Shown here: in pieces, positions 11,204 to 60,236 of the stretch | How positions within the stretch are numbered: the first letter of the stretch is position 1 | Layout: every line of letters starts with the position of its first letter | Assembly (NCBI GenBank): GCA_963714885.1 | Contig: CAVQQV010000004.1 | Location: 24,779-88,778, forward strand | From: Candidatus Sulfomarinibacteraceae bacterium | GTDB lineage: Bacteria; Acidobacteriota; Thermoanaerobaculia; Thermoanaerobaculales; Sulfomarinibacteraceae | Direction: 5' to 3' | Length of the DNA: 64,000 bases | Program-made: the position numbers and the translations under genes | The notes under the pieces: model-generated | Database searches by the model: none | Told to the model about the DNA's origin: nothing | Seen by the model: the letters and a program-made list of their open reading frames with translations, nothing else

Positions 11204-12581
11204 ACTGCGTCCGCAAGCACTCGATCCTGGTCGGGGAAGACCGAGCGCAGGTCGAGCACCACCTCGTCGTTCTCGATCCTCCCGATCACCGCGGGAGAGG
11301 TCGCCCGCAGCCGATCCGCCAGGCTCTGACCTCCCGGTCAGACGAGAGCCCATAGCTGGCGATAGTCTCTTCCGGGGTGGTGCCGCCACCGAGAGCGGCG
11401 CGGGTGGCGCGCCCACGGGCCGGGACGCCGGCTGATCGCAGTCGGCGACCGATGGCTCGAGCGCGGTTCTTCAGGCTCTCCAGTGGCGCGCCGAGCATGG
11501 CGTACAGGGGAATCTCGTCGAGCCGGCCGCTCACGTGCGACGCCAGCACCTCGTCCATCAGGACCAGGGCCGTCTTGTCAGGCCGCAGCGCGCGATACAA
11601 GGGATGGCGGGCAAGCGGTGCGACCTGTTCGGCGCTGCCGACGATGAGGCCCGCCTGCGGACCGCCGAGGAGCTTGTCGCCCGAGAAACACACTGCGTCG
11701 GCGCCGGCGCCGAGGAGATCGCCCACCGTCTCCTCGTGGGGCAAGCCCCACCGGCGGAGATCGTGGAGGGCCCCCGAGCCCTGATCGACAAAGAGCGGCA
11801 GACCGTGTGCGTGCGCGAGCTCGGCAAGCTCCGCGGTCGTTGGTTCACTGGTAAAACCGACGATGCGGAAGTTGGACTGGTGAGCGACAAGAATGGCCGC
11901 AGTGTGCTCATTGACCGCCGCGGCGTAGTCTTTGAGATGGGTGCGGTTGGTGCAGCCGACTTCCACCAATTTTGCGCCGGCGGCGGACATGACGTCGGGC
12001 AGGCGGAAGGAGCCCCCGATCTCGATCAACTGCCCGCGGGAGACGATCACCTCGCGGTCGCGGGCGTGGGCGAGGAGCATCAGAAAGAGTGCGGCCGCAT
12101 TGTTGTTCACCATCACCGCGCTGGCGGCGCCGCAGACGGCGGCGATCCGTTCGGCGATCGGCGCCAGACGCTGGCCCCGGCTTCCAGCGGTGACGTTGTA
12201 CTCCAGGGCAAGGTATGATTTGAGTGATGGCGGCAGGTCTCGCCGCAGTGGGGCCCGGCCGAGATTGGTGTGCAGGAGCACGCCGGTGGCGTTGATCAGT
12301 GCGGGATAGGCCGGGTCGCCGGCGGTTCTCAGAGCGTCGAGGATTTCGCGTTCGAGGGCGTCACCGGGATCGTTGGTCGCATTCCCGGACACCTCGCCGG
12401 CGGCGACTCGCTGGCGGAGCCGGTCGACTGCGGAGCGACAGGCCTCGGTAACGGCTGAATGGCCGTAACGATCAGCGGCGGCGCGGAGGGCAGGAAGGTC
12501 GAGCAGGGCATGAACCGCGGGGATGTTTCGGTATTGGTTTTCCACAAAGCTCATTCTAACCCGGGCGTGTCGGGGAGGCAT
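11173..12581 (-). CDS. selA: L-seryl-tRNA(Sec) selenium transferase, one apparent frameshift near the 3' end (~11335)
   Basis: NATGVLLHTNLGRAPL, VNNNAAALFL, SRGQLIEIGGSFRLPDVM and FSGDKLLGGPQAG (PLP-Lys box). The track ORF stops at 11286, but the conserved C-terminal block GGQSLADRLRATSPAVIGRIENDEVVLDLRSVFPDQD is present one frame over and ends at TAA 11173-11175. Start ATG 12581 or ATG 12554. Confidence 0.85.
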
Positions 12582-20498: not shown

Positions 20499-22018
20499 AT
20501 GAAGCTCCTCATCGCGAATCGCGGCGAGATCGCGGTGCGGATCATCCGCGGGTGCCGGGAGATGGGCATCAATACCGTCGCGGTCTACTCCGAGGTGGAC
20601 CGTCGCGCGCCCCACGTTTTGATGGCCGATCAGAGCTTTCCGATCGGCCCGGCTGAGGCCTCGAAGAGCTACCTCAACGTCGATCGTCTCCTCGAGGTCG
20701 CGTCTGCAAGCGGCGCCGACCTCCTCCACCCGGGCTACGGCTTTCTGGCCGAAAACGCCGACTTCGCGGAACGGGTCGAGGCCGCGGGCGTGACCTGGGT
20801 CGGGCCGCCGCCGGCCGCGATGCGGTTGATGGGCTCGAAGACCGAGTCGCGCAAGCTCGCCGTCGCCTGCGGGGTGCCGCTGATCCCGGGGTTGATGGAG
20901 CCCATCAGGGAGATCTCCGAGCTCGAGGCCTTCGTCGACGAACACGGGCTGCCGGTTCTCTTGAAGGCGGTGGCGGGCGGCGGCGGCAAGGGCATGCGAG
21001 CGGTGTCGGAACGTGGCGAACTCGCGAACGCCTGGGAGCGCGCGTGCTCCGAGGGACAGGCGTACTTCGGCGACCCTCGCGTCTATGTGGAACGGCTGGT
21101 CGACCGGGCGCGCCACGTCGAGATCCAGGTGGCGGCCGACCGCGACGGCAACGCCGTGTACGTCGGCGAGCGCGAATGCTCGATCCAGCGCCGCCACCAG
21201 AAGGTGGTGGAGGAATGTCCGTCTCCGGTGGTCGGGCCCGATCTGCGCCACCGCCTCGGTGAGGCCGCGCTCACCCTCGTCCGGGCATCGGGTTACTACT
21301 CGGTGGGCACGGTGGAGTTCCTGCTCGATCCCGACAGGTCGTTTTTATTTTCTCGAGATGAACACCCGGTTGCAGGTGGAGCACCCGGTGACCGAGGAGG
21401 TTTACGGCGTCGACCTGGTCGTCGAACAGATCAATCTCGCCCTCGGCAAGCCGTTGTCGCTGCGGCAGGAGGACCTGGTGCCCAGGGGCCACGCGATCGA
21501 GTGCCGGATCTACGCCGAAGACCCATTGCGCAACTTTGCCCCATCGCCGGGAAGGATCACGCTCTACGTGCGGCCCGCGGGCCCGGGGGTGCGCGTGGAC
21601 TCGGGTGTTATCACCGACAGCGTGGTGCCCCTCGACTACGATCCCATGTTGGCCAAGCTCGTGGTGTGGGCGCCGGACCGCGAAGCGGCGGTCAGCCGGT
21701 TGAGAGCGTGCTCTGTCGGAGTACCAGGTGAGCGGGGTCTCCACGACCCTGACGTTGTTCAGGGCGCTGGTGGAGATGGCGGCCTTCCGCGACGCCGATT
21801 TTCACACCGGCTTCCTCGATCAGTTGCTGGCCTCCGGCGGTCTTGCGGAGCTCCATGGACGACAGGATCCGGAGGCGGAGATCGCCGCCACCATTGCCGC
21901 GGCCTGTCTGGCGACCGCCGAAGCGGGTGGCCTGCCCGACGATCTCTTCGCCTACGGCGAGGACAGCAATTGGTGGAACGACGGCATCCGGGTGGCGCAC
22001 GGGAGGTTTCCGCGATGA
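20499..22018 (+). CDS. accC: biotin carboxylase subunit of acyl-CoA carboxylase, two apparent frameshifts (~21344, ~21700)
   Basis: MKLLIANRGEIAVRIIRGCREMGI...HPGYGFLAEN...LLKAVAGGGGKGMR...ERECSIQRRHQKVVEE...GTVEFLLDPDRSF, then (Y)FLEMNTRLQVEHPVTEE... in the frame of ORF 21013..22518, then SEYQVSGVSTTLTLFRALVEM...FHTGFLD in ORF 21728..22018. The first break lies in a T5 run (21342-21346) where T4 would restore SFYFLEMNTR. Confidence 0.85.
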
Positions 22019-22518
22019 GGTGGGTCATCCGCGGTGGCGAGGCGGAGCGCGAGGTTGACGTGCAACGGCACGGCGAGGTCTTCGAAATCACGGTAGACGG
22101 TGAGCCGCGCCGGGTGGAACTGGTGCGGCTCGATGGCGCCTTTGCCTCGCTCCGCTACCCCGACAGCGGGCGCAGCTTTCAGATCACCTACCACCACCGC
22201 GCCAACGGCAGCTGGAGAGTCGGCGTGGGGCAACGGGAGTTCGACCTCGCGGTGCTGTCCCCCGCGGAGGCGGTCGAGGCGGTCAGCGGTGGGCGCGAGA
22301 GCGGTCCGAGCCGTCTGACGGCGCCGATCCCGGGCAAGGTGGTGGCGGTCAAGGTGGCCCCTGGAGATGAGGTGGTGCCCGGACAGTCGCTGATAGTGCT
22401 CGAAGCCATGAAGATGGAAAACGAGCTCGCCGCAGAACAGGCCGGGCGCGTGGCCGCTGTCCACGTGGCCTCTGGTGACACGGTGGAAAGCGGCCAGCTG
22501 CTGGTGGAAATCGAATAG
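22015..22518 (+). CDS. biotin carboxyl carrier protein (biotinyl domain with ~90-aa N-terminal extension)
   Basis: ATG 22015 overlaps the accC stop (ATGA). The C-terminal APIPGKVVAVKVAPGDEVVPGQSLIVLEAMKMENELAAEQAGRV carries the EAMKME biotinylation motif. Confidence 0.8.
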   Translation: MRWVIRGGEAEREVDVQRHGEVFEITVDGEPRRVELVRLDGAFASLRYPDSGRSFQITYHHRANGSWRVGVGQREFDLAVLSPAEAVEAVSGGRESGPSRLTAPIPGKVVAVKVAPGDEVVPGQSLIVLEAMKMENELAAEQAGRVAAVHVASGDTVESGQLLVEIE

Positions 22519-44702: not shown

Positions 44703-45902
44703 CTACTTGAGCTGCAGTGAGGACAGGAATTCTTCGTTGGTGGGGAACTCGCGAACCTTCTGCAACAGGAGCTCCATCGCGGCCTCTGGCGACAGCGTCG
44801 ACAGCGCCCTCCGCATGAGGTAGAGCTTCTCCACCTGATCCTTCGGGTAGAGCTTCTCCTCCTTGCGGGTCCCGGACTGCGGGATGTTGATGCACGGGAA
44901 GATCCGTTTTTCGAAGAGCCGGCGATCGAGCACCAGTTCCATGTTCCCGGTGCCCTTGAACTCCTGGAAGATCACCTCGTCCATGCGCGAGCCGGTGTCG
45001 ATGAGGCAGGTGGCGACCACGGTCAGGCTGCCGCCGTTCTCTATCTTGCGAGCCGAACCGAAAAACCGGCGGGGCTTCTCCATCGTGCGGGCGTCGATAC
45101 CACCCGACAGGATCCGTCCCGAGCCCTTTTGGAGATTGTTGAAGGCGCGGGACATGCGGGTCAGAGAGTCCATGAAGACGACGACGTCCTCGCCCATCTC
45201 GACCAGACGGCGGGCCCGTTCGAAGACCATCTCGGAGACCTGAATGTGCGACTCGAGCGACTGGTCGGTCGAGGACGCGTACACCTCGCCCCGTACGACG
45301 TTGCGTCTCCAATCCGTGACCTCTTCGGGTCGTTCGTCCACCAGCAGGACGAAGATCCTGGTGTTGGGGTGGTTGATGGCGATTCCGTGCGCCATCTGCT
45401 GCAGGAGCGTGGTCTTGCCCGCCTTGGGTGGGGAGACGATGAGACAGCGTTGGCCCTTGCCGAGGGGCGCAACCAGCTGGGCGACGCGGGGCTCGACGAT
45501 TTCGGGATCGGTCTCGAGTTCGAATCGTTCGATCGGATCGATACTGACAAGTTCGGAAAAGGGTATCGCCTTGCTGCGATAGTCGTCGGGTTCGAGCCCT
45601 TCGATCGTCTCGATCCCGGACATCCGTGGACGATCCCCCGAGACCGCCTGTCCGGTGAGCAAGAGACCGCTTTCCAGGTGGAGGGGGTTCAAGAGCTCTC
45701 CCGGCACGGTCGGGTCGTTCCGGTCGGCGACGAAGTTGCGCACCGGTGACACCAGCAGGGGGCTTCCGTTATCCCGCACCCAGAGGTAGCCCTCGACCTG
45801 GATCGGCGGCCCCTGTGGCTTTTTGCGGCGGCGGGGGCGCCTCCGGCGTCGCTGGGATTGACCCTCGTTATTGTGCTGGTGTTGCTGTTCTTTTTCGCTC
45901 AT
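44703..45902 (-). CDS. rho: transcription termination factor Rho
   Basis: Basic N-terminal insert (QRRRRRPRRRKK), an RNA-binding domain, Walker A GKGQRCLIVSPPKAGKTTLL, VLLVDERPEEV, DSLTRMSRAFN, GGSLTVVATCLIDTGSRMDEVIFQEFKGTGNMEL. GAGGGAG lies upstream of ATG 45902. Confidence 0.9.
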   Translation of the reverse strand: MSEKEQQHQHNNEGQSQRRRRRPRRRKKPQGPPIQVEGYLWVRDNGSPLLVSPVRNFVADRNDPTVPGELLNPLHLESGLLLTGQAVSGDRPRMSGIETIEGLEPDDYRSKAIPFSELVSIDPIERFELETDPEIVEPRVAQLVAPLGKGQRCLIVSPPKAGKTTLLQQMAHGIAINHPNTRIFVLLVDERPEEVTDWRRNVVRGEVYASSTDQSLESHIQVSEMVFERARRLVEMGEDVVVFMDSLTRMSRAFNNLQKGSGRILSGGIDARTMEKPRRFFGSARKIENGGSLTVVATCLIDTGSRMDEVIFQEFKGTGNMELVLDRRLFEKRIFPCINIPQSGTRKEEKLYPKDQVEKLYLMRRALSTLSPEAAMELLLQKVREFPTNEEFLSSLQLK

Positions 45903-45960
45903 ATTCTCCCTCATGGTGCAGGATGGCCGTATGTTCACGATCTGACGAAAAGCAGGTGCC

Positions 45961-46133: not shown

Positions 46134-46380
46134 CACACTCGGGTCTTCGGTCTCTTCGGGCGAACCGGATGACCTACACGGTCTTCGAGCGATGCTCAAT
46201 CATCCGGAACTGTGCGGTCCGGGCGCCGTCGCCGCGATCAGGGGCGGGCGTCATCCACGAACCACCACGTCCAGCCTAACCGGAAAAGCAGGGATTGGCA
46301 ACATTCTTTGCCGTGTCGTCACAACGTCTGGTTCTTCTGCAGGCGGAACATCACGGTTCCGCATAGTCTACCTTGCACCC

Positions 46381-46659
46381 TCAACCGTCCCACATGCGCT
46401 CGTAGGTTTGCAACCGGTGATCGACGAAGACCATTGCTTCCCCGACGGTCGGGCGCGGGCGAAGGAGGATCTGCCGGTCTGGTGTCTCTTCCTGGACGTA
46501 GACGGTTCCGTCGAGGTCGAGCACGCGCAACATGCCCGCGACACCGGTGTTCTCCTCACGGATGATCCCGGCCGATTCGAGAACGGCGGCCCACTCCACG
46601 GCCGCCAGCCGCAGAGGTGACGGGCCATCAAGGCGCCCCAACAGGTCCTGGTTGATCAC
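46381..46659 (-). CDS. small hypothetical protein; candidate selenoprotein if TGA 46381-46383 is read through to 46351
   Basis: 92-aa ORF (GTG start) ending ...HRLQTYERMWDG-TGA. The same frame continues GCKVDYAEP-TGA, and a 7-bp hairpin (46343-46362) starts 18 nt after the first TGA. See findings. Confidence 0.45.
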   Translation of the reverse strand: MINQDLLGRLDGPSPLRLAAVEWAAVLESAGIIREENTGVAGMLRVLDLDGTVYVQEETPDRQILLRPRPTVGEAMVFVDHRLQTYERMWDG

Positions 46660-46694
46660 GCCTCGCGTCTCGATCTGATGCCTACCGGTCGGAC

Positions 46695-47142
46695 TCAGTT
46701 GGCGGAGATGGTGAGGGACATGCCAGAGAGCTTCTGGTCGGTGATCTCGAGCGCCATACTCGGCACCTTCTTATTGCTTTTGCTGATCGTGACGACCTTG
46801 TCGCCCTTCGTTTTCACCTTGTAGTTGGCGCCGGCCGCGAGGGAGAGCTCCTTCCAGAGGTCTTCAGCGATCTGTTTGGGCTTCATTTTGGCGACCACGT
46901 TGATGGTGAACTTGACCGGTTCTCCATCCAGCGTCTTGAAGACCATGGTGAAGGTGCCGTTGACCTGGGGTTTGCCGTTGATGGTGACCTTCCAGCTGTC
47001 GCGATAGACGGTGGGAATCACAGCAGTGCCGGGTTCCTCGTCCTCGGCCCAGACCATCAGCAGCCGGAGCGACCAGGCAGAAAATGAGCGCGAGTCCTAC
47101 GATGGTGAGGACGGTGCTCCCTGAAACAAAAGAACCACGCAT
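46695..47142 (-). CDS. small secreted hypothetical protein, one apparent frameshift (~47060)
   Basis: The signal peptide MRGSFVSGSTVLTIVGLALIFCLVAPAADG (ORF 46864..47142) joins a Lys-rich beta-type body, AEDEEPGTAVIPTVYRDSWKVTINGKPQVNGTFTMVFKTLDGEPVKFTINVVAK... (ORF 46695..47057). Confidence 0.5.
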
Positions 47143-47309
47143 GTTTCCTCCCGATACGACGTTCGTGGCGTGAGTATACCCCGCTCCTGCCGATGACGGT
47201 GTTCCAGCGCCGAAGTCAGAGGTCGGGCACGACGGGCCGCCTGGTCAGCCCGGTGACCAGCTGATGTCAGAAAAGAAAACCGTAAAAGAGCCTCGTTCTC
47301 ATTTGAATA

Positions 47310-57012: not shown

Positions 57013-58500
<1,488 letters not shown>

Positions 58501-58716
58501 TGTTTCTCTCCCTCGGGGTTGACTCTCACCGTAACATACATGAAACACAGTCTCATTCCGCCATTTCACGGCAGACCCGTGTCTGGTGAAGGCAATGGTG
58601 TCGCCGAGGGGTTGCAACCGTCCGCGGGTTTTCAAGAATCGGTGTAGAGTCCGGGGGTGACGAGAAACTGGTCGGGATTGAGCACGGTATCGCCGCACAC
58701 TCTTGTGGTGACCGCG

Positions 58717-60137: not shown

Positions 60138-60236
60138 GGAAGCGCATGGGGCCTGGTGGCTTCCGCGGACTTCAAATCCGTTGGGCCGGCCTCAGTAGGG
60201 TCGGTCGGAGGGTTCGATTCCCTTGCGCTTCCGCCA
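60138..60236 (+). tRNA. selC: tRNA-Sec (anticodon UCA), CCA encoded
   Basis: Folded by hand: 8-bp acceptor GGAAGCGC/GCGCTTCC, 6-bp D-stem with a 4-nt loop (GGGGCC-TGGT-GGCTTC), anticodon loop CT TCA AA, an 8-bp long variable arm (GGCCGGCC-tcagtag-GGTCGGTC), T-arm GAGGG-TTCGATT-CCCTT, discriminator G, CCA. This is the bacterial 8/5 Sec architecture; 99 nt. Confidence 0.9.

Follow-up and report, generated by a model that had tools for sequence, protein, structure and literature searches.

The window analyzed here, a stretch of 64,000 nucleotides from a Candidatus Sulfomarinibacteraceae bacterium, carries on its minus strand a small gene whose open reading frame ends at a TGA and continues in frame beyond it. 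The features of this gene, and those elsewhere in the window that bear on its interpretation, are as follows.

46351..46659, minus strand: full coding sequence of the putative selenoprotein, from a GTG start at 46659; product of 102 aa ending YERMWDG-U-GCKVDYAEP
46381..46383, minus strand: putative Sec-UGA, residue 93; the aligned codon in relatives is TGC, TGT, or TGA, and the column holds only C or U in a 78-sequence alignment
46354..46380, minus strand: codons following the putative Sec (G-C-K-V-D-Y-A-E-P); tail conserved across relatives with TGA
46351..46353, minus strand: proposed true stop codon (TGA), which sits in the hairpin loop
46343..46362, minus strand: SECIS-type hairpin with a 7-bp stem and loop CGUGAU, its 3' arm in the 3' UTR
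46695..47142, minus strand: gene for a small secreted protein, co-oriented and upstream, 35 nt before the start of the putative selenoprotein gene
44703..45938, minus strand: rho, a conserved downstream neighbor in the clade (context)
11286..12581, minus strand: selA, selenocysteine synthase (PF03841, E 1.7e-105; PF12390)
60138..60236, plus strand: tRNA-Sec, anticodon UCA (ARAGORN)

The minus strand reads ATG TGG GAC GGT TGA GGG TGC AAG GTA GAC TAT GCG GAA CCG TGA, preceded by TAC GAG CGC and followed, after the second TGA, by TGT TCC GCC. ORF 46381..46659 encodes 92 aa with the C-terminus YERMWDG, and the frame then continues past the TGA for nine codons to the next TGA. An initial annotation of the window had described this ORF end and its in-frame tail, and both agree with the minus-strand sequence and the ORF list; it had also predicted a read-through product with a C-terminal U-G-C extension and a length of 101 aa, of which the extension stands and the length becomes 102 aa (92 + U + 9). 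In the public record the protein is a 92-aa "hypothetical protein" of a Thermoanaerobaculales MAG (e.g., MCJ7755815.1), which, judging from the comparisons below, is in all likelihood a shortened call of a 102-aa selenoprotein. Since no signal peptide was found in the protein, it is probably cytoplasmic. Contigs from four runs covering region 46200-47200 (three sediment metagenomes and one metatranscriptome) showed no variant at the TGA site. A metatranscriptome contig of 910 nt (~97% identical) spans 46200-46983, which takes in the gene with its hairpin and a portion of the gene upstream; DNA carry-over in that library is possible.

The initial annotation had also reported selA and tRNA-Sec genes in the window, and these were confirmed by the domain matches and the ARAGORN prediction listed above. 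TGA is the ordinary stop codon of selA, ychF, ntrC, mqnC, and others in the window, and the code is therefore not reassigned. The small secreted protein gene, likewise reported earlier as lying upstream in the same orientation, is indeed on the same strand, and the two genes are possibly co-transcribed. Its frame is split near 47060: ORF 46864..47142 encodes the signal peptide and ORF 46695..47057 the mature part. At locus L089 the orthologue is a single frame of 192 aa, and one base at 47060 or 47062 is missing from contigs of three runs; either a single-base error of assembly or a frameshift specific to the strain is the probable cause of the split. A second apparent frameshift was seen at 20499..22518 on the plus strand, where two overlapping ORFs in different frames carry Biotin_carb_N, CPSase_L_D2, Biotin_carb_C, and Biotin_lipoyl domains, so that the region looks like one broken acyl-CoA carboxylase alpha gene. 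The window also encodes (57013..58698, minus strand) a 561-aa protein with a PLP-dependent (PALP) domain and a C-terminal glutaredoxin domain.

A word-indexed protein search recovered 20 relatives, nearly all of them 92 aa long and ending in YERMWDG, a pattern as compatible with a true protein end as with systematic truncation. The comparison set comprised the DNA of 160 related loci, 80 from genomes and 80 from metagenomes. Results showed that the codon aligned to the TGA was TGC at 93 loci, TGT at 36, and TGA at 30, i.e., a Cys codon at 129 of 160, while TAA or TAG occurred at none of the 160. In every case the aligned codon was followed in frame by the tail G-C-K-[V/I]-[D/N]-Y and a few further residues before a stop, and homologues of ~101-106 aa span the full length of the 102-aa product. 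Across 23 distinct TGA sequences, the Gly following the TGA was invariant and encoded by GGG, GGA, GGC, or GGT, and most differences among the codons for Lys, Val/Ile, Asp/Asn, and Tyr were synonymous or conservative. In the 78-sequence alignment, neither the C/U column nor the Y-E-R-M-W-D-G before it varied, and the second Cys was kept in at least 90% of the sequences. Two of the features by which a bacterial selenoprotein gene is recognized, alignment of UGA to Cys and in-frame conservation past the UGA, were found, and this pairing together with the conserved tail is, at the level of the alignment, the classic Sec/Cys signature. The initial annotation had proposed to look for homologues with Cys or TGA at this site and residues retained beyond it, and had named as a counter-case that all homologues end at WDG; the tail continues in the relatives, and every refuting condition it named was decided in favor of a selenoprotein. 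An exhaustive profile search gave 247 representatives (50% identity level); among the best 150, at least 23 stop at profile position 92 and are probably shortened Sec forms.

The Cys two residues past the putative Sec is probably the resolving residue. Two Sec-bearing relatives (L086:512 and L089:1816, tails UGGKVNFAEP) have Gly (GGC) in place of this second Cys, giving a U-G-G motif, which suggests that the resolving Cys is dispensable in some Sec forms. Among the Cys forms, L063 (CGV) is comparable.

Past the UGA, the arms GCGGAAC (46362-46356) and GUUCCGC (46349-46343) form a perfect stem around the loop CGUGAU (46355-46350). The stem begins 18 nt and the loop 25 nt past the UGA, and the second loop base is G. 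The hairpin is not followed by a T-run, and the minus strand showed no terminator-like site. The coordinates, spacing, loop G, and missing U-run are exactly those given by the initial annotation, which had read the hairpin as SECIS-like. Published criteria for bSECIS elements are a loop of 3-9 nt, a stem of 4-16 bp, and a G as first or second loop base (PMC13188914, Fig. 2 legend), usually followed by G or U, with a UGA-to-loop distance of 16-37 nt and an energy of <= -7.5 kcal/mol (PMC13188914). The window hairpin falls within every one of these bounds (7 bp, CGUGAU, 25 nt, -10.0 kcal/mol), in agreement with that reading. By itself, the hairpin is not beyond chance: the 81-nt single-sequence fold had a z-score of 0.20, and of all 1621 UGA trinucleotides in the window, 3.3% are followed by a hairpin that has this geometry and is at least as good. 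Against Rfam, the sole match of 46200-46700 was a PreQ1-III fragment attributable to chance (E 3.2; 14 bits vs. a gathering score of 63).

The significance of the hairpin rests on comparative data and not on the single sequence. A hairpin of bSECIS geometry at <= -6.5 kcal/mol was present at 28 of 29 distinct TGA loci vs. 8 of 111 distinct Cys loci, where the eight lay at scattered positions, and median energies were -10.0 (TGA) and 0 (Cys) kcal/mol; presence in TGA orthologues, which the initial annotation had made a point to check, thus held, and the Cys-coding ones mostly lack the element. At <= -7.5 kcal/mol, 19 of the 29 distinct TGA sequences retained a hairpin, and one TGA locus (L046) had no convincing hairpin. 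Four different hairpin sequences were found, and each begins at a distance of 15-25 nt, counted from the U of the UGA. The window clade has GCGGARC/GYUCCGC around loop CGUGAY, and a second Sec clade has CCUCGRR/YYCGAGG around loop GGUCU or GUU; L122 has CGACUAC-UGGAC-GUAGUCG, and L078 has GGCUGAGC-CGGGC-GCUCGGCC. The 3' arm of the window-clade hairpin is invariant despite its position past the proposed true stop, and the bases after the arm vary. The stem itself is invariant in 14 distinct relatives except for one pair (A-U, G-U, or G-C), and the only stem variant in the contigs of the four runs was A-U to G-U at 46357. Pair counting revealed no two-sided covariation within the window clade, because the stem hardly varies. 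A sign test on independent contrasts had only 3-4 contrasts to work with, which placed significance out of reach.

We are highly confident, on these comparisons, that the in-frame UGA encodes selenocysteine in this family by standard bacterial recoding. UGA 46383-46381 would be decoded through the usual pathway, with SelB, recruited by the mRNA hairpin at 46343-46362, delivering Sec-tRNA(Sec). Nine further codons would then be translated, and termination would occur at the UGA within the hairpin loop. We infer both the binding of SelB and the actual incorporation of selenium. The product would be a small cytoplasmic alpha/beta protein with a long last helix and a Y-E-R-M-W-D-G-[U/C]-G-C tail, and the tail would most likely act as a selenol/thiol (selenenylsulfide) redox center.

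Alternatively, the TGA could be a true stop that yields a 92-aa protein, the likeness downstream of it being either a relic of a Cys-bearing ancestor or an RNA hairpin with a role in transcript stability or as a rho leader. Public gene calls do finish at this codon, and the hairpin alone is, as noted, unremarkable. However, a true stop would deprive these proteins of the family's invariant Cys and tail, whereas in about four lineages the tail stays in frame and its codons vary synonymously; moreover, the codon is always TGA and never TAA or TAG, and differing hairpins occur at the same place only in TGA forms. We consider a true stop improbable. UGA is the leakiest stop codon, and it might conceivably be read through without selenium, by near-cognate Trp or Cys insertion or by leaky termination, to give a mixture of 92-aa and 102-aa proteins. 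This general leakiness is the only point in its favor, but tRNA-Sec and selA are present, the hairpin fits SECIS geometry and is specific to TGA forms, and the aligned residue is strictly Cys, as expected of a Sec/Cys pair; selenium-free read-through is, by a small measure, even less probable than a true stop. A TGC misread as TGA by sequencing or assembly, for which the apparent single-base frame errors elsewhere in the window (near 47060 and ~21013-21731) might speak, is ruled out for practical purposes, since TGA occurs in 23-29 distinct sequences whose assemblies are independent and the site is invariant in the contigs of the four runs.

To place the putative Sec forms, a tree was built on 146 distinct proteins, and four Sec/Cys changes were required on it. 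The window clade comprises 16 Sec rows (SH-aLRT 98), and its sister is a Cys clade that shares the rho/mqnC synteny. A second Sec clade has 12 rows with tails such as UGCKIDYLGVFEA, and L078 and L046 are isolated Sec forms. TGA forms thus belong to about four separate lineages, Sec having been gained or lost ~4 times. The hosts are chiefly Acidobacteriota (Thermoanaerobaculia, "Sulfomarinibacteraceae", and Holophagae) and Gemmatimonadota, with a few others, from sediments. Several genomes carry two paralogues 6-17 kb apart (contigs of L023/L029, L010/L040, and L106/L153).

Neither the ORF, the read-through product, nor the Cys homologues matched a Pfam or NCBIfam model at E <= 1. A review of May 2026 lists 119 prokaryotic selenoprotein (sub)families with domain identifiers (PMC13188914, Table 1), and none of them fits, as judged from the listed identifiers and, for families with a Pfam or NCBIfam model, from a direct scan. 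A literature search returned no paper with WDGCGC, WDGUGC, or ERMWDG. Judged from sequence, this is a real and previously uncatalogued selenoprotein family, new as a family and ordinary in its mechanism. AlphaFold2, run with the family alignment, gave a confident model with pLDDT 89.8 and pTM 0.82, in which a helix, a short strand, a helix, a four-stranded meander, and a long helix (72-90) precede the tail. A sequence profile search of the PDB found nothing below E 2.7; Foldseek against the PDB gave no match at E < 0.1 (best E 0.13, TM 0.35), and the best match of a fold search of BFVD was uninformative (E 0.086). The modeled fold is probably also new. It is not a thioredoxin fold, being alpha-beta-alpha-beta4-alpha with a UxC motif at the C-terminus and not CxxC or UxxC. 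P0132 (1307 aa, with 11 "repeats") was discarded because its match is a spurious one to a coiled coil. In the close relative P0010 (127 aa), the long tail is not a genuine extension; it comes from reading this DNA, hairpin region included, in the +1 frame, which points to a single-base error of frame in the assembly concerned.

Several known selenoproteins resemble the window family in part. The UXX-star (NF041114/NF041211) and KCU-star/DUF466 (NF033934) proteins likewise carry Sec a few residues from the end (PMC13188914); they too are small, of unknown function, and have Cys homologues, their automated calls are likewise shortened, and their SECIS hairpin extends into the 3' UTR. In contrast, the window family has no sequence relationship to them and has a U-G-C motif, nine post-Sec residues, and an alpha-beta-alpha-beta4-alpha predicted fold. 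The UGSC-containing protein (NF041046) is also small, and its Sec precedes a Gly with a Cys close by, whereas the motif here is U-G-C-K and lies at the extreme C-terminus; the "U-G-x-C" family mentioned in the initial annotation, which would correspond to this protein, is not the one in the window, where no NCBIfam match was obtained. As in the SECIS of E. coli fdhF and the bSECISearch consensus, a stem-loop stands shortly 3' of the UGA with an early loop G followed by U (PMC13188914). Unlike the fdhF type, the window hairpin is unrelated in sequence, holds the proposed true stop in its loop, has an untranslated 3' arm, and matched nothing in Rfam.

Animal thioredoxin reductase, a large flavoenzyme with a eukaryotic 3'-UTR SECIS, ends in a Gly-Cys-Sec-Gly redox tail. 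Its tail is comparable in being a flexible C-terminus with Sec near Cys, where a selenenylsulfide is possible, but the order there is C-U as opposed to U-G-C here, and the two are functional analogs only, with no homology.

Because the Cys/Sec is invariant, a second Cys stands two residues on, and Sec has been recruited repeatedly, we infer that this small, probably cytoplasmic protein has a redox function, with a U/C-G-C center on a flexible C-terminal arm. This function is suggested by the logic of the motif and by neighbors in other clades, not by the window; the C-G-C motif might also bind a metal or metalloid. In ~28 loci outside the window clade, a gene for a FadH/OYE-type Fe-S flavoenzyme (630-714 aa; Oxidored_FMN and Pyr_redox_2 domains) lies directly upstream on the same strand, separated from the family gene by 10-91 nt or overlapping it by 3 nt. 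The best NCBIfam matches of this enzyme are mycofactocin FadH/OYE 2, BaiCD, and long bilirubin reductase, all under the curated cut-offs. Also found near the family gene in relatives were genes for universal stress proteins, Crp-type and sigma-54 regulators, a peroxiredoxin, a CGGC-domain protein, and an ArsP_2 exporter. The window clade instead has the small secreted protein gene upstream and rho downstream.

Some variants of these neighborhoods were observed. Separate Usp genes are frequent neighbors in one subclade, and P0027 (284 aa) has an N-terminal extension of ~190 residues fused to the family domain that appears Usp-like by eye and had no NCBIfam match. In L033, L040, L151, and L153 (~2562-2957 in loci with 3-kb flanks), only a 111-aa ORF stands in place of the FadH/OYE gene of ~650 aa; this ORF groups with the enzyme's C-terminal portion and is possibly what is left of the gene.

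A more specific role can be proposed only tentatively, and we rate it as rather unlikely in its full form: the family could be a new redox carrier whose fold has no solved relative and whose swinging [Sec/Cys]-Gly-Cys arm serves as dedicated partner or substrate of FadH/OYE-type flavoenzymes, the two being paired much as thioredoxin is with thioredoxin reductase. The Sec forms would then be a catalytic upgrade that evolved several times in sediment Acidobacteriota.

The family is a well-supported addition to the known selenoproteins, being absent from the inventory of 119 families as well as from Pfam and NCBIfam. Its recognition further sets right a systematic error of annotation, in which the protein appears as a 92-aa hypothetical protein and the representatives noted above are cut at the same place. 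The conserved U/C-G-C tail is the likely active site of this uncharacterized family. Finally, with ~4 gains or losses of Sec and differing SECIS hairpins at one position, the family may offer a compact case of linked Sec/Cys exchange and SECIS evolution.
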